Shown: positions 1-64,000, numbered from the stretch's first letter. The stretch is DNA of 64,000 nucleotides from an uncultured Gammaproteobacteria bacterium (GCA_964583685.1 CAZOVJ010000002.1:277862-341861), one strand, 5' to 3'. Made by a program: numbers and translations. The notes: a model not told the origin generated them from the letters alone.

Positions 1-309
1 AAAATATTGTTCGCCAATGACAGTAAAGGGAACACCGGAAACATCAGTCTTGAGTTTTTTACCGGTTTCTATTAAGAGTTGCCGATTTTCATTGTTTTCC
101 CAAACCTCAAAATCATGTATTTGAACATAAGGATATTTGGCCTCCAATTTTCTCAGAAACGGTTTTTCCTCCTCACAGCGAGGGCAGGCCACGCTCCAAA
201 AGAAATAGATGTTTACCTCCCCTTGGGGTTCGTTTTGAGCCAGGGCAAAAGAAGAGGGGATGGCAAAGAAAGCAAGCAGGCTTAGTAGTAATAGAAATTT
301 TTTAATCAT
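1..309 (-). CDS. secreted thioredoxin-fold thiol:disulfide oxidoreductase (partial; N-terminal part in window, continues past position 1)
   Basis: Minus-strand translation from the ATG (rc of 307-309) gives MIKKFLLLLSLLAFFAIPSSFALAQNEPQGEVNIYFFWSVACPRCEEEKPFLRKLEAKYPYVQIHDFEVWENN... This shows a signal peptide plus a CPRC (CxxC) motif. It is absent from the ORF track because there is no stop inside the window. The listed + ORF 79..285 is antisense to it. Confidence 0.55.
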   Translation of the reverse strand, partial: MIKKFLLLLSLLAFFAIPSSFALAQNEPQGEVNIYFFWSVACPRCEEEKPFLRKLEAKYPYVQIHDFEVWENNENRQLLIETGKKLKTDVSGVPFTVIGEQYF

Positions 310-381: not shown

Positions 382-972
382 ATGTATCCGGAAATTTTAA
401 AAATAACAAAAGAAGATATCTTGAGAATATTGATGGAGACAAAGAAGAAGTCTAGTCTCAAACAGATAGAATCAGAGGCCAAGGCTCCTCGCTCAATTTT
501 ATCTCAGGCCCTTGAAGAACTGGCCGCTGAAAATTTAGTTGAGATTAAGAAGGGTCTTATTGGTCTGACTAGGTCGGGTAAAAAGCTGGCAGGAGAGCTT
601 CTTAAAAAACACCTTTTAATTGAGAGCTATTTTAGGCAAAAAAGAGGGGAAAAAGAGGCTCATCAGGTCGCCCACCTCCTTGAACACTATATTTCGGGAG
701 AAGTTATCAGAAATATAAAAAAATTATCGACGCTTAAGGAGAAGGGTGTTTCCTTAATAGAATTCAAACAAAAAAATGGCTTAATCACTGATATTATTTT
801 GGGTATTAGATTGTTTGAAAGAATTATCAGTATGGGGATATTTCCAGGAGAAAAAATAAAAATAATAAATGAAATTCCGAATGGTGTTGTTATCGAAGTA
901 AAAAATAAAAAATTTGTTTTGGCTAAAGAGATAGCAAAAGAAATTAGAGTCTTAGAATATGAAAAATCTTAA
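382..972 (+). CDS. DtxR/MntR-family metal-dependent regulator fused to a C-terminal FeoA (SH3-like) domain
   Basis: N-terminal wHTH and metal-sensor region. The C-terminal ~75 aa (GIFPGEKIKIINEIPNGVVIEVKNKKFVL) look like FeoA. It overlaps the feoB start by 14 nt. Confidence 0.65.
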   Translation: MYPEILKITKEDILRILMETKKKSSLKQIESEAKAPRSILSQALEELAAENLVEIKKGLIGLTRSGKKLAGELLKKHLLIESYFRQKRGEKEAHQVAHLLEHYISGEVIRNIKKLSTLKEKGVSLIEFKQKNGLITDIILGIRLFERIISMGIFPGEKIKIINEIPNGVVIEVKNKKFVLAKEIAKEIRVLEYEKS

Positions 973-31407: not shown

Positions 31408-31480
31408 GCACCCGTAGCTCAGTGGTTAGAGCGCGTGTCTTATAAACACGAGGTCCTTGGTTCGATACCAAGCGGGTGCA
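31408..31480 (+). tRNA. tRNA-Ile (anticodon TAT / UAU)
   Basis: Manual cloverleaf: acceptor GCACCCG/CGGGTGC, D-arm GCTC...GAGC, anticodon stem CGTGT/ACACG with loop CTTATAA (anticodon TAT), T-arm GGTCC-TTGGTTC-GATACC... The fold checks out; no CCA encoded. Confidence 0.8.
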
Positions 31481-32916: not shown

Positions 32917-32989
32917 TGCGGGGTAGTGTAGGGTTGCACGGGAGGCTCATAATCTCCCAGACTAGGTTCGACTCCTAGCCCCGCAACCA
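32917..32989 (+). tRNA. tRNA with CAT anticodon (elongator Met or Ile2/lysidine type), CCA encoded
   Basis: Manual fold: acceptor TGCGGGG/CCCCGCA, U8, anticodon stem GGAGG/TCTCC with loop CTCATAA, T-arm CTAGG-TTCGACT-CCTAG, discriminator A plus CCA. It lacks the three G-C pairs of initiator tRNAs. Confidence 0.7.
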
Positions 32990-33061
32990 GCTAGGGTAGC
33001 TCAGGGGCAGAGCAATCGTTTCATAAGCGATAGGTCGTGGGTTCGAATCCCACTCCTAGCA
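32990..33061 (+). tRNA. second tRNA with CAT anticodon, directly abutting the first
   Basis: Acceptor GCTAGGG/TCCTAGC (G7-U66 wobble), D-arm GCTC-AGGGGCA-GAGC, anticodon stem ATCGT/GCGAT with loop TTCATAA, T-arm GTGGG-TTCGAAT-CCCAC. No CCA encoded. Confidence 0.7.
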
Positions 33062-33075
33062 CTTCCTCCTGGAAT

Positions 33076-51843: not shown

Positions 51844-52125
51844 ATGGCAAGTAAAATGAAAAGGGCTCATGTTATCGTCAAGGGAAGGGTACAGGGAGTT
51901 TCCTATAGGTTGTGGACATTTCGCCAAGCCCAAAGTTTAGGCTTGACTGGTTGGGTAAGGAATATTGGGAAGGCTGATGTTGAGGCGGTTTTTGAAGGCC
52001 CAGTGGATAAAATAAAACAGATGATAAAAAGTTGCCATCAAGATCCTCCCCATGCCAAAGTAGAAAAAATAGATGTTCTTTGGGAAAAGGCAACCGGGGA
52101 GTTTAGGGCCTTTAAAATTATCTAA
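51844..52125 (+). CDS. acyP: acylphosphatase
   Basis: VKGRVQGVSYR and GWVRN motifs; 93 aa. Confidence 0.75.
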   Translation: MASKMKRAHVIVKGRVQGVSYRLWTFRQAQSLGLTGWVRNIGKADVEAVFEGPVDKIKQMIKSCHQDPPHAKVEKIDVLWEKATGEFRAFKII

Positions 52126-52134
52126 CAAGTTAAT

Positions 52135-52872
52135 ATGGGTGAGGTATTAATAGGCACATCGGGTTGGCAATATCGGCACTGGCGGGGAGTATTCTATCCA
52201 GAAGATTTAGGTCAAAAAGATTGGTTGAAATATTATGCAAAACATTTCGACACAGTAGAGGTAAACTATTCCTTTTATCGCCAGCCCAAGCCCGAAACCT
52301 TTAAGAAATGGAAATCCTTGATACCTGAGAACTTTGTTTTTTCCATCAAAGGAAATAGATTTATAACCCACATCAAGAGACTTAAAGATTGTCAAGAACC
52401 GGTAAAGAGGTTTTTCGAATCTGCCAAGGGTTTGCTGACCGACGGTAGGGGTTGTAAAGACGTAATTCTTTGGCAACTGACTCCAAGCATGAAGGAGAAC
52501 TTGGATAGACTGAAGGGGTTTATGGACCTTTTGCCTTCGGATTTTCGTCAGGCTTTTGAGTTTCGGCATAAAAGTTGGATGAGCAAGAAAGTTTTTAGCT
52601 TTATTCAAAATTATTCGAGAATCGAAGCGGCCATGGTTTTACAAGATTGGCAGGAATGGCCAATACTTAAAGAGCCCGTTGGCGATTTTGTTTACATTCG
52701 TCTGCACGGCAAAGACCAGCTTTATGCATCCGGGTATAGAGATAAAGAACTTGAGAAATGGGCTGAAAGAATGCGAAAATGGGAGAGTAAATTGGACATT
52801 TACATTTATTTCAACAATGATGCCCTGGGCCATGCAGTTAATAATGCCCTGAAACTCAAGGCTCTTTTATGA
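52135..52872 (+). CDS. DUF72 (YecE-like) family protein
   Basis: IGTSGWQYRHW N-terminal signature of DUF72. Confidence 0.7.
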   Translation: MGEVLIGTSGWQYRHWRGVFYPEDLGQKDWLKYYAKHFDTVEVNYSFYRQPKPETFKKWKSLIPENFVFSIKGNRFITHIKRLKDCQEPVKRFFESAKGLLTDGRGCKDVILWQLTPSMKENLDRLKGFMDLLPSDFRQAFEFRHKSWMSKKVFSFIQNYSRIEAAMVLQDWQEWPILKEPVGDFVYIRLHGKDQLYASGYRDKELEKWAERMRKWESKLDIYIYFNNDALGHAVNNALKLKALL

Positions 52873-53402
52873 AAAAAGAAATTATTATTCACTTTTCTTT
52901 TCTGATTTTATTATTCTTTTTAATCTCCCTATTCCGAGGTTGGTTAAATTTGTCTTACTGGGTTTTTTGGTTTGGGGGAATTTTAGGAACTTTGTTGCCT
53001 GACTTAGAGCATCTGGTCTATGTTTATTTTTCCCGGCCTTATGAACTTACTTCCCAGAGAGTAAAGCAGATGTTGCAAGGGAGAAGAATAGTCCAGGCCC
53101 TAGAGCTTTTAAAAGATACCCGCTACGAGCGGACCCATTTGATATTTCACACTATTTGGTTCCAGGTTGTTTTCTTTTTTTTGGCTTTCTGGATTCTTAC
53201 TTCCTCGGGGAGCATTTTGGGTAGAGGGCTTGTCCTGGCTTTTTTACTTCATTTGTTAATTGACCAAGTGCTTGACTTATGGAAATTGGGGAATCTTGAT
53301 AAATGGCTTAGCCAAATGCCTTTAGCTCTTGATAAGAATCAGTCAAGAGCCTATTGGTTTTTTATATTTTTATTATTCTTGCTTTTGTGTTTTGTCTTTT
53401 GA
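52869..53402 (+). CDS. hypothetical polytopic membrane protein
   Basis: 177 aa, 4-5 hydrophobic helices. Confidence 0.35.
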   Translation: MKKEIIIHFSFLILLFFLISLFRGWLNLSYWVFWFGGILGTLLPDLEHLVYVYFSRPYELTSQRVKQMLQGRRIVQALELLKDTRYERTHLIFHTIWFQVVFFFLAFWILTSSGSILGRGLVLAFLLHLLIDQVLDLWKLGNLDKWLSQMPLALDKNQSRAYWFFIFLLFLLLCFVF

Positions 53403-53468
53403 TTATCAAAAAGGGTTTGTTTGCTTATTGACTTCAAATGTTTAGGGTCAGTATAGTGAAAAGCGTCA

Positions 53469-53789
53469 ATGGCAACGACCACAACAACAGATTCTGATTT
53501 TGAAAACAATGTGCTTAAATCAAAAATTCCCGTCTTGGTTGATTTTTGGGCACCATGGTGTGGCCCATGTATAACGGCCGAACCGGTCCTCGGAGAACTG
53601 AGCGAGACTTACCAGGGGAAAATTGAGGTGATGAAATTGAATGTTGATGAAAATCCCCAGACCGCGGTAAGATATAGAGTGATGTCAATTCCAACAACCA
53701 TTCTCTTTAAGGGAGGTCAAGAAATAGATAGACAAATTGGATTTGCCGGTAAAGTAGCATTTGAAATATTAATTAAGAAAGGATTATAA
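53469..53789 (+). CDS. trxA: thioredoxin
   Basis: WAPWCGPC active site. Confidence 0.85.
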   Translation: MATTTTTDSDFENNVLKSKIPVLVDFWAPWCGPCITAEPVLGELSETYQGKIEVMKLNVDENPQTAVRYRVMSIPTTILFKGGQEIDRQIGFAGKVAFEILIKKGL

Positions 53790-53806
53790 GAAGGGGGTGA
53801 TAGATT

Positions 53807-54085
53807 TTGAACCCAATTGATCAACCAGACCAGCCGACTCCTATAGGGGGTCCTGTTCAACCTGTAGGCGACACTCCGCCTGCTCAACCAAGTGAGGATA
53901 AGACACCACCTCCGCCTCCAGGTGGAATACCAGATACGCCAACACCAGAGCCAACACCAGGCCCGGTGACACCAGAACCGACACCAGAAACCCCACCTCC
54001 TGCCACTACTCCGGAACAACCGGCCGGTGGGCCAGTTGTTCCAAGTGAAGAAGAAAAGTCAGGAGAAATGCCTGGTAACGTCTAA
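53807..54085 (+). CDS. Pro/Thr/Glu-rich low-complexity small protein (TTG start)
   Basis: TPEPTPGPVTPEPTPETPPP repeats. SD AAGGGGGTGA (53791-53800) lies 6 nt before the TTG. It ends exactly at the trxB start. Confidence 0.3.
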   Translation: MNPIDQPDQPTPIGGPVQPVGDTPPAQPSEDKTPPPPPGGIPDTPTPEPTPGPVTPEPTPETPPPATTPEQPAGGPVVPSEEEKSGEMPGNV

Positions 54086-55035
54086 TGGCGAAACCCTGGG
54101 ATGTCATTATCATTGGTTCAGGCCCTGCCTCACTAACTGCGGCAATTTATACAAGCCGCAATGATGCTTCTACCTTAGTTCTTGGAGGAGAGAACTGGGG
54201 AGGCCAATTGATGTTGACCACGGCCGTTGATAATTTTCCTGGCTTTCCCAAAGGCGTTCAAGGCCCAGAGCTCATGAAGAAAATGAGAAAGCAGGTTGAA
54301 CGCTTCGGTGCTGAATTTATTGAAAAAGATGTTCAAGGTGTGAACTTTAATAAAACCCCCTTTGAGCTTTTTGTTGGAGGTTTAAAATATTCGGCCAAAA
54401 GTGTTATTATTGCCAGCGGTGCATCCTTCAAAAGACTGGCAGTTCCGGGAGAATCTGAGTTAATAGGTAGAGGAGTATCTTTTTGCGCCCTTTGTGACGC
54501 CCCTCTTTTTAAAGGGAAAAAAGTTGTTGTGGTCGGGGGAGGAGACAGCGCAGCCGAAGAGGCGTTGATTCTGAGCAAATATGCAAAAGAAGTACACATT
54601 ATTCATCGCCGAGATAAGTTAAGGGCTCAAGCGGCCATCCAGAAGAAAATATTTGCCAACAAAAAGCTCAAATTACTTTGGAATACTGAGGTTGAGCGGA
54701 TTGTCGGCGAAGAAAAGGTCGAAAAAATTATTCTCAGAAATAATCAAACAGGAAAGTCACAAGAGTTCATTGTAGATGGAGTTTTTATTGCCATTGGTCA
54801 TCAGCCAAAAAGTGACATTTTTAAGAATGCTCTTGAAACAGACGAGAAAGGATATATAAAGAGAATGACAATTGACAAACCGCAAATGCCAAATAGTTAT
54901 CAGATGGCAACCAGTATTCCCGGGGTTTTTGTGGCCGGAGATGTTCATGATTTTCACTATCGCCAAGCAATAACTGCAGCTGGTTTTGGTTGCATGGCGG
55001 CGATGGAAGTTATAAAGTGGCTGGATGAAAGATAA
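54085..55035 (+). CDS. trxB: thioredoxin-disulfide reductase
   Basis: IIGSGPASLTAAIY FAD motif, redox-active CALCDA, and VVGGGDSAAEEA NADPH motif. Confidence 0.85.
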   Translation: MAKPWDVIIIGSGPASLTAAIYTSRNDASTLVLGGENWGGQLMLTTAVDNFPGFPKGVQGPELMKKMRKQVERFGAEFIEKDVQGVNFNKTPFELFVGGLKYSAKSVIIASGASFKRLAVPGESELIGRGVSFCALCDAPLFKGKKVVVVGGGDSAAEEALILSKYAKEVHIIHRRDKLRAQAAIQKKIFANKKLKLLWNTEVERIVGEEKVEKIILRNNQTGKSQEFIVDGVFIAIGHQPKSDIFKNALETDEKGYIKRMTIDKPQMPNSYQMATSIPGVFVAGDVHDFHYRQAITAAGFGCMAAMEVIKWLDER

Positions 55036-55762
55036 TATTCTAGGAAGGCTTGTTCCTTTTCTTTTAGTGGCAACTGTCTGCTTGGCCTTTGCCGTTGGAA
55101 TTCTTTGGGAGAAGGTAAGGAAGCTTGAAAGTCCAACTGCTTCTCCTGTTCCCAAACCTCAAGTAGAGCAGGTTCTTGGTCAGGGCAAACTTGCTGATGA
55201 ATTGGCTGAGAAGATTACTCAGGTTAATGATCAGGACCATATTCAAGGTTCTCGAGACGCCAAAGTCTTTTTGATTGAATATTCAGACCCAGAGTGCCCC
55301 TATTGTAAAAAATTTCACCTAACAGCTCAGCAGCTTGTTGATGAATATAAAGGACAAGTGGCCTGGGTTTATCGGCATTTTCCCCTAGATATGCTTCATA
55401 CAAAAGCCAGGGCTGAAGCTGAGGCAATGGAGTGTGCAGGAGAACTGGGGGGCGAGGAGGCATTTTGGACCTTTAATGACAAACTTTACGAGATTACTCC
55501 TAGTAATAATGGCCTTGACTTGGATAAGCTTCCTCAGCTGGCCAGTCAGATAGGCCTTGATGTCGGTAAGTTTAAAGAATGTTTGGCGGCTAAAAGATAT
55601 AAGGATAAAGTTGAAGATAATTATCAGGGAGGGAGTGCGGCTGGAGTAACGGGTACCCCCGGTAACTTTGTTATTAATAGTCAGGGTGATGCCTGGTTTG
55701 TTCCCGGGGCCGTCTCTCTTGAGCTTCTTAAAAAGACAATAGACCAGGCACTTCAGGATTAA
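55025..55762 (+). CDS. DsbA-like thiol:disulfide oxidoreductase, membrane-anchored
   Basis: N-terminal TM and a CPYC active site (DPECPYCKKFH); 245 aa. Confidence 0.65.
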   Translation: MKDNILGRLVPFLLVATVCLAFAVGILWEKVRKLESPTASPVPKPQVEQVLGQGKLADELAEKITQVNDQDHIQGSRDAKVFLIEYSDPECPYCKKFHLTAQQLVDEYKGQVAWVYRHFPLDMLHTKARAEAEAMECAGELGGEEAFWTFNDKLYEITPSNNGLDLDKLPQLASQIGLDVGKFKECLAAKRYKDKVEDNYQGGSAAGVTGTPGNFVINSQGDAWFVPGAVSLELLKKTIDQALQD

Positions 55763-56285
55763 GTGATTCTAAGATTTTATAACTGACGACAGCCGCTGTG
55801 CCCCAGACATTGAAGGATTTATTGATACCAAACATAGGTAATTCAACGATGATGTCTGCCGCACCTAGGACCTTTGCATCAATACCACTGCTTTCATTAC
55901 CGACCACTATTGCCAAAGGAAAATTGGGCCTGAGCTCTGAGTAGGGGATAGAATTTTTATGTTGTTCTAGAACAATAATCTGAATTTTCTGTCCCCTGAG
56001 CTCTTTGATGGTTGTCAAGGTCGAGTCCCTTTTCTCCCAGGGAACCCAATTTTCAGTTCCCACCGCTGCCTTATGGATACGAGAGGAGGGAGGATATTCC
56101 ATCTGGCCACAGAGAAAGATTTTTTTACAGGCAATGGCGTCGGCCAACCTGAAAAAAGAGCCGATATTGTAAGTATCAATGATTTTATCCAGGACAAGAT
56201 AAATCGGATTTCTCTTAATCCTGGCCAGCTCCGACCTTTTAGGTTTTGTTTTTCTCAATTCAGCAGCACCTAGTTTTTTAGTCAT
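55728..56285 (-). CDS. SpoU/TrmH-family RNA 2'-O-methyltransferase
   Basis: LVLDKIIDTYNIGSFFRLADA, VVGNESSGI and a SPOUT C-terminal knot region. Its 3' end overlaps the DsbA-like gene convergently by 35 nt. Confidence 0.7.
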   Translation of the reverse strand: MTKKLGAAELRKTKPKRSELARIKRNPIYLVLDKIIDTYNIGSFFRLADAIACKKIFLCGQMEYPPSSRIHKAAVGTENWVPWEKRDSTLTTIKELRGQKIQIIVLEQHKNSIPYSELRPNFPLAIVVGNESSGIDAKVLGAADIIVELPMFGINKSFNVWGTAAVVSYKILESLNPEVPGLLSF

Positions 56286-56330
56286 CTTTAGAGAGTCCTC
56301 GGCTGCGGGGCAGGGTATCCTACGCTTAAG

Positions 56331-56654
56331 CTACGGATTACCATAGTATCCTTTCTTTTGCTTCGGACTACTTATCCTGCCCCTTAAGAAATCTTTCTTC
56401 AAGACTACAGAAATTAATCTCTTATAAGCAAATGCTTTACCTGAACCTGTTTTCAAATAAAGCTCAAAATCTCTAGCCTCCTTTTCTGTGTTAAATGCGC
56501 CGTACCAAACCAATTTCCAAGGCCGGTGTGCTTTCGTTGATTTTATCCTACCTTCGTTATGCAGCTTAAATCGTAACTTTAAATCTCTGGTTGAACCAAA
56601 GTAAAAGATATGAGATTTCTCGCTTAATAAGATGTATGAATAGAATCTTAGCAT
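56331..56654 (-). CDS. GIY-YIG nuclease-domain protein (UPF0213-like)
   Basis: FYSYILLSEKSHIFYFGSTRDLKLRFKLHN carries the GIY...YxG...R...E...N pattern; 107 aa. Confidence 0.7.
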   Translation of the reverse strand: MLRFYSYILLSEKSHIFYFGSTRDLKLRFKLHNEGRIKSTKAHRPWKLVWYGAFNTEKEARDFELYLKTGSGKAFAYKRLISVVLKKDFLRGRISSPKQKKGYYGNP

Positions 56655-56893
56655 GCCATTCTGTAGCTATACTTCGCTATTCCATAGCTACGTAGTAGCG
56701 ACGGATAGCCTTGGCGAAAGATGGCTGCACATCGTGAATAACATTAGAACAATACTTCAAGAGACAACTGAGTATGTTTACATCCCCGATGTCTGCCCAC
56801 AACAAGTGTAATTATAAAGAATTTACCTCACTAAATTCTAGTATGCCGTTAACTTCTAGATGCAACCTAAAGCCTGCTTACATCTTATCCTTT

Positions 56894-59131
56894 TTAACTT
56901 GCAGAGAAAGGAGATTTACTATCCAATATCGCTCTCCTTATAGAAAGTGGCAGGTTGTAAGTCATATTAAAAGCCCAATACTCAAGTAATTTACCTTCTC
57001 CTCCAAATACAGGCACAGTGTCAACTATTTTTGACACATAGTAATCACCGAGAAGAAGAGACATATCGTTATAGTAAGAGAACATCTCTAGTGGAGCAAA
57101 GATATTCCCTATAACTCTCCATGGTGCTGAAACAGCCCCTAAAGCTCGACTGAAAAGTAACTTACTATCTCTATTCTTAACGATATGTGGCATTTCAGAA
57201 GCGAGTTGAGCTAAAACATAAGCCTCTCTTAGGATGCCTGAAGGAGATATTGGATTTAATGCCGCAACTCCTAAAGGAAGGAAATCGCTAGTTGATAAAC
57301 CATAAGCAGCTAACACCAGGTAGAGAGTTTTTGAGACTGCTTCTGTGCCAACCGTAAAACCTAAATCTCTAATAAACCCCTGCATTCTTTTTTCTCCGAC
57401 CTGTTTTATCAACTCTTCCGCTTGTTCTGGTGTAACAATGCCTCTTTCAAGTTGGGAACTGACTATATCACCAAGCCAATCTTCTCTATATTTTCTATCA
57501 ACGAATAAACGAGCTGGTTGAACTATTAGTTTTCGAACCAGTTCTGTGCGAGTCTCTGAGTCCGTTGCTAGCCGATGTAAACCCTTTGGTTGCCAACTTA
57601 GGAACAATTTATCGGCTAAATATCTTGGGGTAGAAACAGTAAGAGATGTTGCTCTTTCCGTGGTTATTCGTTGTTGACCTTCCCACCCAAGAAGATCGTT
57701 GTATTTACTAATATCAATTACTTCTCTTAAATAACCTGGTTTTCTTAAAATGTTATTCAAATGTTGTCTATATCTTTCATTTCCCAAAAGACGCATCAAC
57801 GGCTGTCCTACCATAGGTGTATTGTCCAGGATGAGGTAAGGTAAATATCTTTTCGACCCGTCTCTTAATTGTGTTGCTTCTGCCTCTGAGACCTTACCAA
57901 GCCTCTGCCAATCACCGATAGTTGCTTTCCTAACTTTTTCTTGAAGTTCCTTGTCTTTTAGAATTCGTGTTCTCATATGCCATAAATTAGGCAAGCCGCT
58001 TCTATACCTTTCATCATCCTCTTTCAGTCGTTGTATTAAACCATCGACAGAACTAAACGATTCTGTATGCGCTGCAAGATAAGAATCTAGTTTCTTAAAA
58101 TCTACCTCGTCAAAGTGAGCAAAAACGCCTCTTTTTAATCCATCAAATATAATTCTTGCATGAACGGGTGAAAGAGGAAGGAAAAAAGGAACAGCTAAAC
58201 CTGGCTGGCAATCAACTGCCGCAAATTCTGAAAGACCAGTTTTTTGATCATTTCTGGTTAAAACATTTGCTTGAGAAACGAGAGTATACCACTCGTATTG
58301 CCGAGCAAGTCCCAAAGCACCAATATCATGGCACACCCTTACTAGATCGTCCATAAAAACTCTCTTACGCCTCATTTCTGAATCAGGATGTTCTCTTGTT
58401 TTTCCTAACAACCTTAAAACCATTTTGTCATCAGCTTCGTATCGTGAACTCCTTCCGTTAACCCATTCGTGAACTCCAGCAAAACTTCCAACTTCGCTAT
58501 CCCAGTAATATCCAAATGGTTTTGCTACCGCAGAATCTGTTCCAAGTTCAATGTTTGTGGCTACCCGAAGAAGTTGCTGCCATATAAGCGCCGATCTTAA
58601 AGCCTCTTCTCTCAATCGAGGGGTAAAAGAAGCCTGATAGCTTAACTTAAAAAGTAAATCACGGAAAGCCTCTTTCCATTTGCTTTTTGGTCTTAGTACC
58701 TTGAGTGCGACAGGATTTTTGTCTCCATCTTCTTTAGAAGCATCATAGATTACGCCTTTCTCAGGCATTGCTCGGTAAACTTGACCAGCAAACCCACTTC
58801 CTGGACTTGTTTCTATGTTAAATCGCTCTATACCCAAGCCGTTACCATCTAAGGCACGAACATTTGCCTCAACATTTTCACCAATAAAATATCCATTTCT
58901 TTTCGGTTTGACTAAAATCTCACCTGATTTAATTCTATTATCAAGTTGGCGTCGAAAAGCAGTTGCTGAATCTTCTGGTGGTTGAGAGGTTGAAGAATAA
59001 ATTAGAACCTCATGAGAGGTAGTATTGAGTTGCACAGAGGGCGTGGCATCTTGTTCAAGTTGGGCAGGCAATTCTGATTGTGGAACTCCTCTTGGAATAA
59101 AACCAGGGGGGTTAATTGCCTCTTTTGACAT
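56894..59131 (-). CDS. atypical protein-kinase-like protein (ABC1/UbiB-like glycine loop and VAxK), 745 aa
   Basis: GSGFAGQVYRA (rc of 58769-58801) followed by PVALKVLRP (rc of 58688-58711), a DCQPG (DFG-like) motif, and a ~300-aa C-terminal extension with no match. The Gly-loop nucleotide coordinates were derived arithmetically from the ORF start and not re-read from the sequence. Apparent GC is higher than in neighbouring core genes. Confidence 0.5.
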   Translation of the reverse strand: MSKEAINPPGFIPRGVPQSELPAQLEQDATPSVQLNTTSHEVLIYSSTSQPPEDSATAFRRQLDNRIKSGEILVKPKRNGYFIGENVEANVRALDGNGLGIERFNIETSPGSGFAGQVYRAMPEKGVIYDASKEDGDKNPVALKVLRPKSKWKEAFRDLLFKLSYQASFTPRLREEALRSALIWQQLLRVATNIELGTDSAVAKPFGYYWDSEVGSFAGVHEWVNGRSSRYEADDKMVLRLLGKTREHPDSEMRRKRVFMDDLVRVCHDIGALGLARQYEWYTLVSQANVLTRNDQKTGLSEFAAVDCQPGLAVPFFLPLSPVHARIIFDGLKRGVFAHFDEVDFKKLDSYLAAHTESFSSVDGLIQRLKEDDERYRSGLPNLWHMRTRILKDKELQEKVRKATIGDWQRLGKVSEAEATQLRDGSKRYLPYLILDNTPMVGQPLMRLLGNERYRQHLNNILRKPGYLREVIDISKYNDLLGWEGQQRITTERATSLTVSTPRYLADKLFLSWQPKGLHRLATDSETRTELVRKLIVQPARLFVDRKYREDWLGDIVSSQLERGIVTPEQAEELIKQVGEKRMQGFIRDLGFTVGTEAVSKTLYLVLAAYGLSTSDFLPLGVAALNPISPSGILREAYVLAQLASEMPHIVKNRDSKLLFSRALGAVSAPWRVIGNIFAPLEMFSYYNDMSLLLGDYYVSKIVDTVPVFGGEGKLLEYWAFNMTYNLPLSIRRAILDSKSPFSAS

Positions 59132-59185
59132 GTTTAATTTTAATTTTCATTCTATGCTTTTAACAGTAAATAATAAAACTTCGGT

Positions 59186-59220
59186 AATTATACATCTTTT
59201 TGATCAGAAATTGTATAATT
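59186..59220. promoter_or_regulatory. 9-bp perfect inverted repeat AATTATACA-N17-TGTATAATT forming two divergent extended -10 (TGnTATAAT) elements
   Basis: Read from the sequence: 59186-59194 and 59212-59220. Each arm reads TGTATAAT on the strand of the gene it faces (the kinase-like gene leftward, HTH and PHP-ATPase rightward). Confidence 0.45.
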
Positions 59221-59230
59221 GTGTTGAGGT

Positions 59231-59422
59231 ATGCCGAAGATTAAAGACGAATTACCAAAACTCTTAACCATAAAACAAACAGCTGACATTCTAAATGTGC
59301 ATGTAGAGACTTTACGGAGATGGGGCAAAAGCGGAAAACTAAAAGCTATTAGAGTTAATAAACGGGGTGATAGGCGCTATGACCCCAGAGATATTGAAGC
59401 AATACTGAAAAACAAAAAATAA
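59231..59422 (+). CDS. excisionase/MerR-type helix-turn-helix DNA-binding protein
   Basis: 63 aa; LLTIKQTADILNVHVETLRRWGKSGKLKAIRV is typical of the excisionase-family HTH (AlpA/Xis-like). Its stop is 2 nt before the large ATPase gene. Confidence 0.7.
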   Translation: MPKIKDELPKLLTIKQTADILNVHVETLRRWGKSGKLKAIRVNKRGDRRYDPRDIEAILKNKK

Positions 59423-59424
59423 AT

Positions 59425-62289
59425 ATGAAATATCCAAAAGGTTCTGAATGGCGAAAGTGGGATCTACATATTCACAGCCCGCTTTCAATCCTAGCCAATA
59501 AATACCCTAAACTGCCAGACGGCAAGCCAGATTGGGAAAAATTCTTAAAAAGCCTTGAAGAGTTGGACATTGCAGTTGTTGGTATAACCGATTACTTCTC
59601 AATAGAAGGATATAAAAAAATCTTAGATTTCAAAAAGGCTGGTAGGTTAAAGAATATCGATCTTATTCTGCCCAATATCGAGTTTAGGTTAAACTGTGTC
59701 ATTGCAAGTAAAAAGGATGGAGCTAAACCAAGACGATTAAATTATCATGTGATCTTCTCGAATGAGGTGTCACCTCAGGACATCGAAGAACACTTTCTGC
59801 ATGACCTTCATTTTTACTATGAGGGCAATCCCCAAAGCAAAGATGAAAGTCGTAAGTTAAAACTTTCCAATTTGAAGGTATTAGGAAATCAACTTATATC
59901 TCAACATGCTCCTTTCAAAGGAAGAGACCCGTTGGAGTTAGGCGCATCAAATGCTGTTGTAAGCCATGAAGAAATAACGGAATTGTTGAGTGGGGATAGT
60001 CGCTTCAAAGGAAAATATCTCCTTGTCCTTCCAGAGGAACTAACAAACTTGATTGACTGGGATGGTCAAGACCATCTTATTCGGAAAGGGCTTCTCCAAA
60101 AATCAGATATGCTGTTTTCCTCTAATCCCAAAACTGTCCAATGGTGTCTTGGGAAACCGCCCTACATGGAAGGAGAGAGAAAATTCAAAAAGGAGTTTAA
60201 GACCTTGAAATCCTGTATCCACGGATCGGATAGCCACTGTATTGATGATGTTGGGATTCCATGTGCCAAAAGGGGTGACCCCAGTCATAAGTGCGACGGA
60301 AAGCCAAATACCTGCGATTTAAGATTCTGTTGGATAAAAGCTGACCCGACCTTTGAGGGACTAAAACAACTTTTGTATGAACCAGAGGAGAGAGTCTCAA
60401 TCCAAACTAATTGCCCAATACCTCCCAGAAGTAATTTAACGATTGTCAAAGTTAAAATTCCAGAGTCGAAAATCAACGATGAGCTGTCCATTGCTAACAC
60501 AGAAATAGAACTTAACCCAGGCTTGGTTGCCGTAGCAGGAGGTAAAGGAACTGGCAAAACCGCCTTCGTTGACCAGATTGCTAACTGTTACTTTAATCGA
60601 GTGGATTCTGGCGATGAGAATTCCTTTGTGAGGAGAATTTCAGATCAGAATCCTGACTTAAAAATCGAATTAACTTTCAAGGATAAATCAACTTTTTCAA
60701 AAAAAGCCACAGACCTATTACTTTTTGAAGAGGGGCAAATTGCTTATATCGCTCAGGGAGAACTAGAACAGTATATTGGAGAAAGGTCGGATCTTGACGA
60801 ATATCTTAATGACTTAATCTTCCAAAGTCCGAAAATACAAAATTCAGTAGAAAAATACGAATTTTCAAAGACTCAAACATCAATAGACGATCTCAGACAA
60901 AAAATTCAGAAGAAGTCAGAATCGATTGAGTTAATAGAGCAAGCAACTAAAACAGAAGCCATTGAAAAGGCAAAAATTAAAGAAAAACAGTCCAAAGCAG
61001 AATTGGAAGATATAACCCAAAGAATCACAGAGCTTGAAAAGAGGCTTAGTGATAAAAAGGTCAAGCTCGCAAAGAAAAAACAAAAAGCAATAGCGAGATT
61101 AAAAAACAGAAGAGACTTGTTTATTAAATTAAAAAAGGAATTAACGCAGGCAATCGACTTCATTGATCAAGAATTTCCAAACTTTAACTCTTACATCTCC
61201 TCTATCAACAAACTGCTCAAAAAGTTAGAAATTCCAGAACCATTTCCCGATTTAGCGTATCCTGACAAGGATAAGTTGCAAGAAAAATTAGATTATATTG
61301 AGCAGGAAATAAACGAGGTAATTAAAAAGATCGGGAAAGCCCAAAAGGACATCGATAAGTTTGAAGCAGGCATACGAACCCACACATCAATGCTTGATAA
61401 AAAGAGAGAGGCTAAAATCACTCTAAATCAAGCTAAGGAGGAAAATAAAAAATTAAAGAAGAAGAAAAAAGAGCTTGCGTCTAAAAGCAAAGAAAGGAAA
61501 AAGTTATTTACCCAGATGGTTACTGCCTTCCTTGAACTGAAGAAAAAGTATGACGAGATTATCTCGCTATTTTCTGTAGACAAGGCACAAGTTCTATCTG
61601 ATCTCGATTTCGTCGCAGAGGTTAATTTTGATTCAAAACAACTACTCAAAAACGCAGAGGACATTGTTGACAACAGGAGAGTTACAGTCAGACCAGAAGA
61701 TGGCGATGACTGGGTATTCAAGGGCTTAGTCGGACTTTATAAGGAAGTTGCAGCTGGCGACGAAACCAAAATTAAAACTTTAACTGACGAGATAGAGCGT
61801 TTGAATAAGGACTTGAAGGATAAGATAAAAACTTCAAGCGCTATAAGTATTGGCGATTTTTATAAATTCCTATACGGCAGCTACCTGGAAGTCATCCCTG
61901 TTGTCAAATACAAGAATACCAGCGTCAATAAGCTCTCGCTGGGGCAAAAAGCGACAGTCCTTATCAAGATTTATTTAGCTGAGGGGGACAAACCTATTAT
62001 CATCGACTCGCATGACGACCATCTTGATAATGAATTCATCATGGACGAGCTTATTTGTTCTATAAGAGAAGCTAAAAAGTATCGACAGATTATCTTAGTA
62101 TCCAATAACGGCAATGTTGTTATAAATAGTGATGCAGAACAGGTCATTTTGGCAAACAGGGACAGCAATGGAAAAATCTCGTATATCTCTGGTTCAATAG
62201 AAGAGCCAAAGATTAGAAATAGAGCGGTTAAGGTATTAGAGGGCGGATCAGAAGCATTTAGGAAACGGCAACAAAAATACAGAATATGA
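59425..62289 (+). CDS. PHP-domain phosphoesterase fused to a Rad50/SbcC-like coiled-coil ABC ATPase (candidate defence/DNA-surveillance protein)
   Basis: PHP motifs WDLHIHS (59461-59478), GITDYF and HGSDSH (approx. 60220-60240); Walker A GGKGTGKT (60538-60561); a ~320-aa Lys/Glu-rich heptad coiled coil; ABC signature LSLGQKA (61933-61953); Walker B/D-loop PIIIDSHDDHLD (61993-62028). 954 aa. Confidence 0.6.
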   Translation: MKYPKGSEWRKWDLHIHSPLSILANKYPKLPDGKPDWEKFLKSLEELDIAVVGITDYFSIEGYKKILDFKKAGRLKNIDLILPNIEFRLNCVIASKKDGAKPRRLNYHVIFSNEVSPQDIEEHFLHDLHFYYEGNPQSKDESRKLKLSNLKVLGNQLISQHAPFKGRDPLELGASNAVVSHEEITELLSGDSRFKGKYLLVLPEELTNLIDWDGQDHLIRKGLLQKSDMLFSSNPKTVQWCLGKPPYMEGERKFKKEFKTLKSCIHGSDSHCIDDVGIPCAKRGDPSHKCDGKPNTCDLRFCWIKADPTFEGLKQLLYEPEERVSIQTNCPIPPRSNLTIVKVKIPESKINDELSIANTEIELNPGLVAVAGGKGTGKTAFVDQIANCYFNRVDSGDENSFVRRISDQNPDLKIELTFKDKSTFSKKATDLLLFEEGQIAYIAQGELEQYIGERSDLDEYLNDLIFQSPKIQNSVEKYEFSKTQTSIDDLRQKIQKKSESIELIEQATKTEAIEKAKIKEKQSKAELEDITQRITELEKRLSDKKVKLAKKKQKAIARLKNRRDLFIKLKKELTQAIDFIDQEFPNFNSYISSINKLLKKLEIPEPFPDLAYPDKDKLQEKLDYIEQEINEVIKKIGKAQKDIDKFEAGIRTHTSMLDKKREAKITLNQAKEENKKLKKKKKELASKSKERKKLFTQMVTAFLELKKKYDEIISLFSVDKAQVLSDLDFVAEVNFDSKQLLKNAEDIVDNRRVTVRPEDGDDWVFKGLVGLYKEVAAGDETKIKTLTDEIERLNKDLKDKIKTSSAISIGDFYKFLYGSYLEVIPVVKYKNTSVNKLSLGQKATVLIKIYLAEGDKPIIIDSHDDHLDNEFIMDELICSIREAKKYRQIILVSNNGNVVINSDAEQVILANRDSNGKISYISGSIEEPKIRNRAVKVLEGGSEAFRKRQQKYRI

Positions 62290-62432
62290 CATTTGCTTTA
62301 ATTGTAAGCCCCTGTGTTGACTTCTGTGGGACTTTCCAGCCTCAAGTGACCATATGCCAAGCTCAAATCAGCTTTGGGGGAGATTTGCAAAGGTTAGTGC
62401 CTAGTTTACCCGCCTACAGCTTTTGTCCAGTC

Positions 62433-63029
62433 TTATTTCACCTGGGCAAACTCTCTTCCATCAGGAGTAACACACTTTCTTGGTTCACCAGTTCTTTGAG
62501 AATACTGCTCTGATGAGAGCTGCCCTCTGGCTTCAACACAATCCTCATATGTTTCTACCCATTTGAATCTGTCATTTATTGAAGGGGCAAGATCGCCTCC
62601 AGGAAGAAGTTCTGGGTAGAACATGCCTGGGCAACCATGACTGCAATCATCAAACTTGCCTTCGTTCAGTAAAACTTCAGCCAACTCCCAAGCACTCATT
62701 GTTTGAGAAATCTCATAAGTAGTTTGAGTATTGATGGTGTTGTTGCTAATGCTAATTGCTCCCTCTTGCCCAGGGGTGGCATCTTCGGCATGCCCCAGGG
62801 CATATTTGAAGGCATCCTCGTCTTTGATAAAGCCATAGTAGCGAAGATTGCTGACAACACCCATTAAAGTAGCTTCTTTGCCGATGCGGAATTGAACCAC
62901 TTGGGCATTTTGTCTTGGTGCTTCAAACTTGCTTTGACGAGACTTGGTGAAATAAACGGCAATGCTTGCCAGCAAGACAAGAGCAACAACAATTAGTGGG
63001 ATAGTTGGTAGTTTTTTCTTCATGTTCAT
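62433..63029 (-). CDS. hypothetical secreted/membrane-anchored Cys-containing protein
   Basis: N-terminal signal/TM (LPTIPLIVVALVLLASIAVYF), a CSHGCPG motif, and a strong SD AAAGGAGGTGA upstream; 198 aa. Confidence 0.4.
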   Translation of the reverse strand: MNMKKKLPTIPLIVVALVLLASIAVYFTKSRQSKFEAPRQNAQVVQFRIGKEATLMGVVSNLRYYGFIKDEDAFKYALGHAEDATPGQEGAISISNNTINTQTTYEISQTMSAWELAEVLLNEGKFDDCSHGCPGMFYPELLPGGDLAPSINDRFKWVETYEDCVEARGQLSSEQYSQRTGEPRKCVTPDGREFAQVK

Positions 63030-63100
63030 TTTAATTTTTCACCTCCTTTCGTTAAGAATTAGCCTTAACTTACTAGAGGTTTCGGATGTTAACTTCCTTT

Positions 63101-63225
63101 GGGGGAGATTGTCAAATCCAGGGAAAACAAAAAGCTCCCCACAGCGATGGGCTTACGCCCACCTGCCACCCTTTCGGATGACAGCCTCGACGGCGCTCTG
63201 TGAAGAGCTTATTGCCGTCGAGGTC
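63101..63225 (-). ncRNA. candidate structured cis-regulatory RNA in the 5' leader of the 62433..63029 gene (unclassified)
   Basis: A GC-rich block in an AT-rich intergenic region. On the minus strand it folds as a 10-bp stem (63185-94/63214-23) enclosing an inner hairpin, a 9-bp hairpin with a GAAA tetraloop (63163-84; needs G-U pairs, so only stable on the minus strand), a GGGC-GUAA-GCCC hairpin (63148-59), and a GGGGAG/CUCCCC long-range pair (63102-07/63135-40). Confidence 0.35.
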
Positions 63226-63386
63226 TTCAATGCCATGCCCTAAAAGGGTTTAGGCAATATGCTTGTATTTTATCAATTTAACAATTTTCTTGCCATACCC
63301 CTTAGTTTTGGCTTAAAGACATCATATTTGATAAAATTATCATTAGAAGGCACTTTAGGTGGTGCAATTAAATTACCCGATATTAC

Positions 63387-64000
63387 AATGAGCGTATCGA
63401 ACATAATCCAGCAGGTTATCGAAATCACCAATCAGAAATTGGAAATCTCCCCAAAAAGAGACAAGTTTATTTCTATTTCTTTGTGGGATTTTAGAAATGA
63501 AAAGGGGAACACGATACCAAAAACCGATCTAAAGAAGGTTTTGAGAAAACTAGAGGAAGAGCAGTTAATTAAGTTGATCTTTACTGACCATTTAGACAGG
63601 TTGGGACGACAAGCTGGAGACAAGGTTGAATTTCAAATAAACAGAAACGCCTTCGATAAGTTTTATAGAAAAAACAGAAACCCACAACTTACCTCAAAGG
63701 TATCTCAAACAGCTAAAAATGGAGAAGTGTTCTATGAGGTTTTTTATAGTGAGATGTCCAGAGAGATTGTAGTCAACGGTTTCCAACTGGCAAAACCAGA
63801 TTTCGAGTCAGAAAATGAGCAATTCTTTGCTTATGCGTATAAAAACGCCTACAGAAGAATACCTATTAAAGAAATTGAAGAGAATTATAAGACAAAGTTC
63901 AAAAAGTCTCCACATAGAATCCTGGCTGATTTGGGTTTTACAGGTAGTTTTGCAAAAGCCTTCTTTAGTATATCGAGAAAGGGAGTTTTGTTTAGAAAGA
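63387..64000 (+). CDS. hypothetical protein (partial; continues beyond the window end)
   Basis: Open frame from ATG 63387 to the window end (>200 aa, MSVSNIIQQVIEITNQKLEISPKRDKF...). It is not in the ORF track because there is no stop within the window. AT-rich like the core genome. Confidence 0.4.

Follow-up and report, generated by a model that had tools for sequence, protein, structure and literature searches.

An intact TrlF-family cassette with an excisionase-type HTH gene in a CPR bacterium, encoding a probable phage-defence nuclease homologous to Ppl

What does a PHP phosphoesterase fused to an SMC-like ATPase do in a CPR bacterium, and does it represent a new antiphage system? Two ORFs in the window, by which we mean the whole 64,000-nucleotide stretch of DNA analysed, raise this question. 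An earlier note had read them as a candidate defence module, in which an excisionase-type HTH gene is followed by the fusion gene after a 2-nt gap. Both ORFs and the gap are present, and together they form an intact cassette of two genes, one for a small HTH_17 protein, the putative regulator, and one for a TrlF-family fusion protein (Table 1). Based on the analogy with the E. coli protein Ppl, we consider that this TrlF is probably a phage-defence nuclease. Ahead of the cassette lies a possible -10 element, and the block TTTGTATAATT..GTTGAG is common to the window and to the closest relative (L011), where it stands just 5' of the HTH gene. A promoter scan of the locus gave no -35 element, and promoter and terminator scans found no more sites there than in shuffled sequence.

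Table 1. Coordinates of the cassette and its parts, counted from the first letter of the window.
Feature	Position	Strand	Basis or remark
Possible promoter -10 element TGTATAAT	59212..59219	+	11 nt 5' of the HTH start codon; read from sequence, putative function
63-aa HTH_17/MerR-type DNA-binding protein (excisionase-family fold)	59231..59422	+	Pfam, TIGR01764, PADLOC, PHROG
954-aa TrlF-family protein (PHP phosphoesterase + SMC-like ABC ATPase)	59425..62289	+	NCBIfam NF045780
PHP (polymerase/histidinol-phosphatase) metal-dependent phosphoesterase domain, aa 1-330	59425..60414	+	Structure prediction
Clade-specific Cys/His insert (C280, H288, C290, C297) inside the PHP domain	60262..60315	+	Conservation
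ABC ATPase head N-lobe, aa 340-472: Walker A G372-T379, Q-loop Q444	60442..60840	+	Pfam AAA_23, predicted secondary structure
Antiparallel coiled-coil arm, aa 475-718, apex loop 601-614, no CxxC hook	60847..61578	+	AF2 helices
ABC ATPase head C-lobe, aa 721-954	61585..62286	+	Signature, Walker B, homology with Ppl
C-lobe motifs: LSLGQ 837-841; Walker B D861 then Ser, not Glu; D-loop D868; H-loop position N894			

By its sequence, the 954-aa protein is a member of a family that is already curated, the 'TrlF family AAA-like ATPase'. It matches the NCBIfam model NF045780 with 508.2 bits (7e-152; cut-off 350), and residues 5-953 align with positions 1-944 of the 944 in the model. Accordingly, the suggestion of a new variant can be set aside; the window holds an ordinary intact TrlF member, which is a known kind of protein and no new system. 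Homologues of about 955 aa number more than 5,000 (clusters, protein search), identities of 55-60% are found across unrelated phyla, and archaea also carry TrlF. PHROGs gave no match to TrlF, and among phage records only that of Microcystis phage Mwe-JY31 matches over most of the protein length (query 1-953, 51% covered). The name TrlF is also borne by an unrelated protein of tropolone biosynthesis.

The motifs from which the fusion had been recognised are all in place, namely DLHIHS (13-18), GITDYF (53-58) and HGSDSH (266-271) in the PHP domain, and GGKGTGKT (372-379, with K378), LSLGQ and IIIDSHDD (858-865) in the ATPase head. Their residues are invariant or nearly so in 97 homologues and largely kept in 71 distant family members, and the putative PHP nuclease ligands are strictly conserved. 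Considering that the Pfam PHP model is sub-significant on both the full protein and its N-terminal 345 aa (12.7 bits, E 0.16), the PHP call was made by structure, and in the predicted structure the N-terminus is a PHP fold with conserved putative metal-ligand residues. The Cys/His insert is invariant in the 97 close homologues and present in only 26 of the 71 family members; judged from its residues, it may be a zinc-binding loop.

In the ATPase part, Pfam AAA_23 matches residues 355-541 (4.1e-10), and the ABC head motifs (Walker A, Q-loop, signature, Walker B and D-loop) are conserved in 70-71 of the 71 distant members: Q444 in 70, and Walker A, S838, G840 and D861 each in 71. Position 862, directly after the Walker-B Asp, is Gln in 47 and Ser in 24 of these proteins, Ppl included, and never Glu. 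Foldseek gave 54 matches at E<=1e-3, and all 50 of those listed are ABC proteins of the SMC/MukB/JetC/Rad50/RecN/RecF/LmuB type. The predicted structure and these matches support the proposed single chain, in which a PHP domain is fused to a coiled-coil ABC ATPase of the SMC/Rad50/RecN/RecF type. The coiled coil is shorter than the ~320 residues estimated before: the AF2 helices of the arm (475-507, 510-540 and 543-600, then 615-644 and 648-718) span about 245 residues, with one arm of ~125 aa. As for a zinc hook, the apex loop has no Cys, and no invariant or near-invariant Cys occurs in 450-830. A special likeness to Rad50/SbcC was not upheld, since MukB, JetC, SMC and RecN give equally good fold matches and the hook is absent. 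Searches of PDB sequences, run both with the protein alone and with a profile built from 20 sequences, returned coiled-coil noise and weak ABC matches only, with no Ppl or TrlF structure among them.

Ppl, a single-gene anti-phage protein of E. coli, has the same domain order as the window protein, in which a PHP domain, an ABC N-lobe, a helical middle and an ABC C-lobe follow each other. On the one hand, the link to Ppl drawn in the earlier note holds as true collinear homology. BLASTP against Ppl (WP_015059139.1) gives three collinear blocks (6-59, 283-385 and 838-951), hhalign gives a probability of 99.1, and the C-lobe is the best-conserved block (33% identity, E 2e-18). On the other hand, the protein is not a Ppl member. 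The NCBIfam Ppl model NF042955 reaches 117.4 bits against a cut-off of 1000, with its best stretch at 832-950 only; the NCBIfam Ppl and Spaf_1101 models match residues 832-953; and the PADLOC Ppl model (PDLC02208, 98.5 bits) matches in two stretches only, best 834-950, covering 117 of 894 model positions. Considering that the homology is collinear and yet the Ppl model fails, we regard TrlF as a sister of Ppl. Compared with Ppl, the PHP domain of TrlF is ~75-90 aa longer, its PHP motif II is TDY instead of SDH, and the middle regions are unalignable. The TrlF of the window is also paired with an HTH gene, and that of relatives is embedded in restriction-modification (R-M) operons.

PMC12904381 and PMC13434339 describe Ppl as an anti-phage, NTP-inhibited 3'-5' ssDNA exonuclease. 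According to the former, Ppl is inhibited by NTPs bound at the PHP and NTPase domains, is triggered by 3'-OH ends and acts as a single gene; in the latter, Xu et al., Mol Cell 2026, is cited as the primary reference. By analogy, the best explanation of the cassette, in which our confidence is somewhat above even, is an NTP-gated defence exonuclease that senses DNA ends. In this case, one TrlF chain would carry the PHP nuclease directly before the SMC/Rad50/RecN-type head, which is split by the arm of ~125 residues, and two chains would associate through the ATPase heads, which would clamp nucleotide between Walker A and the signature motif. The bound NTP would hold TrlF off. Considering that a catalytic Glu never follows the Walker-B Asp, the nucleotide site appears to be built for sensing and not for fast turnover. 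Upon phage infection, with NTP pools falling and free 3'-OH DNA ends becoming available, TrlF would degrade DNA 3'->5' at its PHP site, and phage replication would stop. A restriction enzyme of the same operon could supply the DNA ends in many relatives, and because R-M genes are absent from the window, its TrlF would work without a partner, like Ppl. In the window clade the H-loop His is replaced by Asn and the Walker-B+1 residue is Ser, so that nucleotide may be handled differently than by Ppl. These replacements, the TDY motif, the sub-significant Pfam PHP match and the two-stretch PADLOC match speak against this explanation.

The small protein was correctly placed in the excisionase family. 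It matches Pfam HTH_17 (2.8e-12, 47.1 bits) and MerR_1 (2.4e-10), PADLOC mad1 (7.8e-12) and the PHROG 'excisionase and transcriptional regulator' (4.6e-11), and it narrowly passes the TIGR01764 'excise' domain model (29.3 bits; cut-off 28.8). In L011, L012 and L014, the TrlF operon begins with an orthologue of this gene (69-78% identity). In iterated HMM searches the HTH was directly upstream of TrlF only in L001-L003/L012 and L014, and HTH_17 was found in only 2 of 22 other small ORFs upstream of TrlF. We rejected the HTH as a universal TrlF partner, the linkage being confined to a few CPR lineages. The TrlF-TrlG operon of an E. coli IncC plasmid is headed by an HTH_17 gene too, with only 20% identity to that of the window. 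By analogy with trlR, we propose that the HTH protein is an operon-leader regulator, and it probably controls transcription of the cassette.

The surroundings of the cassette in the window are plainer than had been supposed. A neighbouring GIY-YIG nuclease is confirmed (56331-56654, 7e-16), whereas the label 'kinase-like' is unsupported for the 745-aa neighbour (56894-59131, minus strand), which has no match in Pfam, NCBIfam, PADLOC, PHROGs or PDB sequences. As companions of TrlF both neighbours were rejected, having no matches in L011, L012 and L014. The six upstream genes are housekeeping genes (acylphosphatase, DUF72, thioredoxin, thioredoxin reductase, DsbA-like protein and SpoU methylase), and the gene downstream of TrlF encodes a 198-aa protein on the opposite strand. 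No recombinase ORF is among those listed for 52000-64000, where the window ends, and no tRNA adjoins the locus. Instead of the expected defence island, the window shows housekeeping neighbours, with no R-M gene, trlG or other defence gene seen in it, which counts against a defence role. The claim of a distinct composition stands only marginally: the GC content of the locus is 0.380 against 0.410 +/- 0.016 for 3-kb windows (lowest 5%) and its tetranucleotide distance is in the top 6%, and much of this shift can come from the Lys/Glu-rich coiled coil.

Among the relatives, the association with defence and mobile loci is strong, with links to R-M operons, other defence genes, plasmids and recombinases. 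In 24 of 75 genome loci TrlF is co-oriented with an R-M operon (type I, III or IIG), next to which or within which it stands; 21 of these loci were found by clustering, and L067, L069 and L078 by Pfam. The clustered R-M genes are co-oriented with TrlF in 36 of 37 cases, and stop and start codons often overlap. Four loci have TrlF inserted among hsd genes: L018, L045 and L062, where it is flanked by hsdM and hsdS or hsdR with overlapping codons, and L010, an IncC plasmid of E. coli. It follows hsdR in L057, L066 and L010 and Res in L011 and L024, and in L012 and L014 a methyltransferase gene and a 320-aa gene are directly 3' of it. In L011 (85% identity), a tight operon comprises the HTH gene, a 220-aa protein gene, an N6_N4 MTase gene, a ResIII endonuclease gene and TrlF. 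The three extra genes between HTH and TrlF, two of them type III-like R-M genes, are absent from the window, which compared with L011 lacks exactly this 4.65-kb segment.

These R-M associations speak for the defence exonuclease. The positions of TrlF relative to the hsd and Res genes, the genes that follow it in L012 and L014 and the segment missing from the window also favour an alternative that we nevertheless consider unlikely, in which TrlF is a companion or guard module of R-M systems and not autonomous. Embedded in hsd or mod-res operons, it would either act on the DNA ends left by the partner restriction enzyme or, as PrrC does in EcoprrI, become active once the R-M complex is put out of action, and the window copy would be an orphan after R-M loss. 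Put generally, and as tentatively, TrlF would be a widespread R-M-coupled accessory nuclease of bacteria and archaea, which senses partner-made ends or enzyme loss and destroys invading DNA. If this coupling is true, TrlF could take a RecBCD-type role in post-restriction degradation in reduced CPR genomes, and the HTH-TrlF pair of the window would be a stripped-down remnant of a composite operon. However, no R-M genes adjoin TrlF in roughly two-thirds of the genome loci or in several of the copies on plasmids (L004, L005 and L009), and Ppl works as a lone gene. Moreover, the partner types vary (I, III and IIG), a pattern that co-location in islands would explain as well as physical coupling.

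Other neighbours in the relatives include genes for an OLD-family nuclease, a Cas4-like PD-(D/E)XK nuclease, GmrSD and Wadjet-like proteins, and in pAcX50c NACHT, RES and toxin-antitoxin genes are near TrlF. Matching plasmid records exceed 1,100 (825 of 1,141 conjugative), and RefSeq annotates TrlF on many. A relaxase, tRNA-adjacent islands and serine recombinases at 5-10 kb from TrlF are further signs of mobility in relatives. These neighbours and the mobility likewise count in favour of the defence exonuclease.

The family is named after the TRL locus of Photorhabdus laumondii, trlR-trlF-trlG, which is switched on when the temperature rises and arrests replication, and deletion of the whole operon abolishes temperature restriction (PMC7554251). 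The founding paper left the function of TrlF open. It is improbable that the cassette is such a stress or temperature growth-arrest module, for physiological control or toxin-like and not for immunity, even though both operons begin with a small putative regulator. The suppressor mutations of temperature restriction are all in trlG and none in trlF (PMC7554251), which weighs against this reading and against the defence exonuclease as well; the TrlG homologue of L010 (8387-9550) has no tblastn match in the window, and a TrlG-like neighbour occurs in only two of the loci analysed (L010 and L088). Growth arrest would also be compatible with defence, because conditional arrest is typical of auto-active defence systems.

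We consider it quite improbable that TrlF is a housekeeping repair protein, a one-chain functional substitute for SbcCD/Mre11-Rad50 that acts on hairpins and on broken ends in CPR bacteria with their small genomes. Its fold resembles the Rad50, RecN, RecF and SMC heads, PHP domains of Pol III alpha serve as exonucleases for proofreading or repair, the PHP-fold EndoQ is a lesion-specific endonuclease, and the window neighbours are housekeeping genes. In one Chloroflexi lineage TrlF keeps a conserved Cu-ATPase/CsoR/amidase neighbourhood that looks vertically inherited, a point that also counts against the defence reading. However, the distribution is patchy, the flanks differ even among close relatives, and many TrlF copies are found on plasmids and next to genes of R-M or other defence systems. 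The repair role is further weakened by split copies in 5 of the 75 loci, which are expected for dispensable genes, as well as by the missing zinc hook and by Rad50 sequence models that reach 20 bits against cut-offs of 700-1000.

Finally, it is very improbable that the pair serves an integrated element or plasmid, in which case TrlF would be an SMC-like protein for its maintenance or partition and the HTH a genuine excisionase (recombination directionality factor). In favour of this, the HTH scores above the cut-off of the excisionase model and has matches among the PHROG 'excisionase' families, relatives adjoin serine recombinases and prophage-like genes, most of the matching plasmids are conjugative and one phage record calls the shared C-terminal domain 'chromosome partition protein'. 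Against it, no integrase adjoins the pair in the window or stands directly beside it in L001 and L011, although one may lie downstream of the window's end at 64000. Moreover, R-M/TrlF operons begin with a gene of this HTH family in L011 and L010, and a partition protein would not need strictly conserved nuclease ligands.

For the window itself, the result is mostly a correct annotation, that of an intact member in a CPR genome. The family is very large, with more than 5,000 clusters in bacteria and archaea, and is common on plasmids and islands, including resistance plasmids of the IncC and IncF groups in E. coli and Klebsiella. In the literature it is linked only to a temperature-restriction phenotype, which was mapped to the neighbouring gene (PMC7554251). 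The sistership with Ppl, the shared lack of the catalytic Glu and the recurrent wiring into R-M operons together give a concrete testable hypothesis.

In comparison with known systems, TrlF of Photorhabdus has the same architecture as the window protein, which matches the TrlF model over its full length at equivalog level; the Photorhabdus protein had been annotated 'histidinol phosphatase', in keeping with its PHP domain. The window differs in its CPR host and in the absence of trlG (SLFN_AlbA_2 + HATPase_c_4) downstream, and where most TrlF proteins have DQPE[DE] and THN.N, the window clade has DSHDD and SNNGN together with the Cys/His insert. PrrC in EcoprrI, which fires when the R-M complex of EcoprrI is disabled, and the Rlo genes of Campylobacter type I loci are auxiliary defence genes embedded in R-M loci. 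TrlF resembles them where it is inserted between hsd genes of one operon, although their folds are unrelated to TrlF and the window copy has no R-M partner. In SbcCD and Mre11-Rad50, a nuclease likewise works with an ABC head bearing an antiparallel coiled coil, and the Rad50 structure 7zr1 is among the top fold matches (1e-8). However, TrlF is one chain and not two, its nuclease is PHP and not calcineurin-like, with no calcineurin-like gene adjacent in the window, and its arm is far shorter than that of Rad50. Wadjet JetC and Lamassu LmuB also use an ABC head with a coiled coil for DNA surveillance, and there are fold matches to them (8dk2, 9qxx and 9hqx) and weak PADLOC matches. These systems are multi-subunit, with a separate nuclease or effector and kleisin-like partners, whereas the nuclease of TrlF is part of the same chain, and no such partner genes lie beside TrlF in the window. 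Ppl and the window protein both have a Walker-B Asp followed by a non-Glu residue, and Ppl and TrlF both occur on plasmids and in defence contexts.

The HTH gene and the TrlF gene are both present in the window with the coordinates and spacing given in the earlier note, and their junction reads TAA-AT-ATG, leaving a gap of 2 nt. The motifs quoted there also lie where they had been placed, both in the PHP part (DLHIHS, residues 13-18; GITDYF, 53-58; HGSDSH, 266-271) and in the ATPase part (GGKGTGKT, 372-379; LSLGQ, 837-841; IIIDSHDD, 858-865). Their columns are invariant or nearly so in an alignment of 97 homologues, and most are still kept among 71 full-length members, down to about 28% identity and with E. 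coli Ppl included; they are not chance strings. The protein matched the NCBIfam model NF045780, "TrlF family AAA-like ATPase", over residues 5-953 (model positions 1-944 of 944; 7e-152; 508 bits, cut-off 350 bits), and its sole Pfam match was AAA_23. We regard its family membership and architecture as secure.

The candidate metal ligands D13, H15, H17, D56, E86, H108, C264, D269, and H271 are each kept in 61-71 of the 71 members, and a Cys/His insert (C280, H288, C290, C297) is specific to 26 of them. In the full-length predicted model (pLDDT 87.1, pTM 0.70), the ABC head consists of two lobes, residues 340-472 and 721-954, parted by an antiparallel coiled coil that runs up at 475-600 and down at 615-718 and has a Cys-free apex loop. 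A Foldseek search with the head gave 54 matches at E<=1e-3, and all 50 matches listed were SMC-superfamily ABC proteins, among them MukB (4e-9), Rad50 (1e-8), Smc, JetC, RecN, condensin/cohesin, RecF, and LmuB, indicating that the label SMC/Rad50/RecN-type is correct. The Rad50/SbcC-like ATPase proposed earlier holds in this broader sense, but an affinity specific to Rad50/SbcC found no support.

The suggested membership in Ppl, the E. coli single-gene anti-phage protein, gave way to a sister relationship. Because BLASTP against the RefSeq-annotated Ppl WP_015059139.1 (L008) gave three collinear blocks and hhalign a probability of 99.1, TrlF and Ppl are, as judged from their sequences, homologous sister families of one architecture. 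On the other hand, the Ppl model NF042955, with a cut-off of 1000 bits, scored only 117 bits on the window protein, best over the last 120 residues, and the PADLOC Ppl HMM scored 98.5 bits in two stretches. The residue following the Walker-B Asp is Gln in 47 of the 71 members (Ppl, with DQPED, among them) and Ser in 24 (the window protein, with DSHDD, among them), and the canonical catalytic Glu occurs there in none of the 71 TrlF and Ppl members aligned. In the same alignment, the H-loop His is replaced by Asn (N894) in the clade of the window protein. These substitutions suggest that the site may serve nucleotide sensing over rapid hydrolysis.

Ppl has been described as an ssDNA 3'-5' exonuclease that is inhibited by NTPs bound at both the PHP and NTPase domains and is activated by NTP depletion together with 3'-OH ends that phage homing endonucleases generate (PMC12904381, a 2026 review; the primary paper is Xu et al., Mol Cell 2026, as cited in PMC13434339). 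A site that binds nucleotide and does not hydrolyze it would fit this NTP-inhibited model, a link that we draw ourselves by analogy. Considering the homology to Ppl, the conserved catalytic and nucleotide-binding residues, and the strong defense and mobile-element context of the relatives, we consider that TrlF probably acts as a Ppl-like, NTP-gated, DNA-end-sensing PHP exonuclease for defense, although the window has no partner defense gene and we hold this reading with only moderate confidence.

The TrlF family is large and widely dispersed, with more than 5,000 clusters scored in a protein search. It occurs in CPR phyla, Chloroflexota, Acidobacteriota, Cyanobacteria, Bacteroidota, and Planctomycetota, as well as in methanogens, Halobacteria, and Bathyarchaeia, and in 1,141 plasmid records (825 conjugative). 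By BLAST clustering and Pfam, R-M genes of types I, III, and IIG were found at 24 of 75 genome loci, and 36 of the 37 clustered R-M genes were co-oriented with TrlF. Frequent arrangements are hsd genes on both sides of TrlF, with stop and start codons that overlap (L018, L045, L062), and TrlF immediately following hsdR or res (L057, L066, L011, L024). The commonest Pfam families among 127 immediate neighbors were ResIII, N6_N4_Mtase, Methylase_S, Eco57I, and N6_Mtase; a set of copper-ATPase neighbors, kept in synteny within one Chloroflexi lineage, ranked equally high. TrlF could also be imagined as a companion or guard of R-M systems, a role that we consider unlikely.

An E. coli IncC plasmid carries, within a Tn7-like element, the operon HTH_17, hsdR, trlF, trlG, hsdS, AAA, and hsdM, and its trlG homologue contains SLFN_AlbA_2 and HATPase_c_4 (Pfam). 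The name TrlF comes from the three-gene "Temperature Restricting Locus" (TRL) of Photorhabdus laumondii, which comprises trlR (79 aa, a putative regulator), the large trlF, annotated as histidinol phosphatase, and the "RecG-like" trlG with a HATPase_c_4 domain (PMC7554251). At 36 °C the locus is induced, and it arrests growth; all suppressor mutations fell in trlG and none in trlF, and the authors therefore left the role of TrlF undecided (PMC7554251). Within the literature library searched, no follow-up paper was found. That TrlF is a TRL-type conditional growth-arrest module seems rather improbable.

Other neighbors of TrlF include an OLD-family nuclease, a Cas4-like nuclease, GmrSD, and Wadjet-like genes. 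In Flavobacteriia (L065, L074, L077), a same-strand gene of ~446 aa, an MksE-like gene, and a gene of ~1,090 aa lie 3' of TrlF, a gene set resembling a Wadjet/Mks system. TrlF is present as two ORFs at 5 of the 75 genome loci (L021, L034, L038, L056, L084), the split in L084 being ~1.3 kb long with an opposite-strand ORF inside, and on the E. coli IncF plasmid L007 it is truncated and adjoins an IS21 element. These copies fit a dispensable accessory gene. Homologues also occur outside syntenic housekeeping positions; confinement to these was the pattern that the earlier note had set against a defense role. A housekeeping repair enzyme is an improbable identity for TrlF. Nearby genes also include serine recombinases, a TrwC relaxase, and, at island edges, tRNA genes. 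A function in mobile-element excision or maintenance is very improbable.

The HTH protein matched Pfam HTH_17 and MerR-type models and barely passed the threshold of the excisionase domain model. A direct coupling of the HTH gene to TrlF, again across 2 nt, was found only in close CPR relatives (Microgenomates L001-L003/L012, Shapirobacteria L014). In the closest relative, the Woesebacteria MAG L011 (85% identity), both genes are kept 4.65 kb apart (blastn; window 59372-59424 vs L011 1301-6000), separated by genes for a 220-aa protein that weakly matches HEPN, an N6_N4 methyltransferase, and a ResIII/TnsA-like endonuclease. The five genes are closely packed into a single operon. The window therefore holds the first and last genes of this operon without the R-M core, which was either lost in the window or gained in L011. 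In L012 and L014, a methyltransferase gene and a 320-aa gene lie 3' of TrlF. Based on these comparisons, the HTH gene is most plausibly the leader or regulator of a modular defense operon rather than an excisionase. The element TGTATAAT lies 11 nt 5' of the HTH start codon and is kept in L011.

The surroundings in the window gave no support for a defense island, and the segment is compositionally unusual only marginally. Upstream are genes for an acylphosphatase, DUF72, thioredoxin, thioredoxin reductase, a DsbA-like protein, a SpoU methylase, and a small GIY-YIG protein. The label kinase-like found no support, since the 745-aa neighbor matched nothing in Pfam, NCBIfam, PADLOC, PHROGs, or PDB sequences, despite a GxGxxG...ALKVL-like stretch in its ORF; in relatives, this ORF does not accompany TrlF. 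Downstream lie an opposite-strand 198-aa gene and, 117 nt upstream of that gene, a LOOT RNA (75-87 bits; gathering score 46.4), which explains a conserved non-coding stretch of ~250 nt (63026-63279). L011 and L001 likewise carry the two within a few kb of TrlF, the RNA being 0.9-4.3 kb downstream of TrlF in three CPR genomes. In L001, prophage-like genes and a serine recombinase follow the RNA. A long ORF at ~63400-64000 (+), containing ...MSVSNIIQQVIEITNQKLE..., runs past the window end and has no similarity to the genes after LOOT in L001 or L011. A tandem tRNA-Met (CAT) pair (32917-33062, +) and a tRNA-Ile (TAT) at 31408 are unrelated to TrlF.

Coordinates of the gene pair, its motifs and neighbors, and the aligned blocks of TrlF and Ppl
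Feature	Coordinates	Strand	Basis or remark
HTH ORF, 63 aa	window 59231-59422	+	ORF read from window sequence
TrlF ORF, 954 aa	window 59425-62289	+	ORF read from window sequence
Walker-B motif, aa 859-864	window 61999-62016	+	family alignment
H-loop position N894	window 62104-62106	+	family alignment
745-aa ORF	window 56894-59131	-	ORF in window
LOOT RNA	window 63146-63256	-	Rfam RF03000
LOOT RNA	L011 10144-10257	-	Rfam RF03000
LOOT RNA	L001 17151-17258	-	Rfam RF03000
BLASTP block 1	TrlF 6-59 vs Ppl 3-50		covers HxH motif
BLASTP block 2	TrlF 283-385 vs Ppl 207-303		PHP domain end to Walker A, E 7e-10
BLASTP block 3	TrlF 838-951 vs Ppl 775-888		signature motif to C-terminus, 33% identity, E 2e-18

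In summary, the window protein is an ordinary member of a family that had already been curated and whose sister has been characterized in its mechanism. The recurrent embedding of TrlF in R-M operons and the missing Walker-B catalytic Glu among its members provide testable points. On the one hand, the window TrlF differs from Rad50/SbcC in that it lacks their zinc hook. On the other hand, it shares with Ppl a residue other than Glu after the Walker-B Asp.
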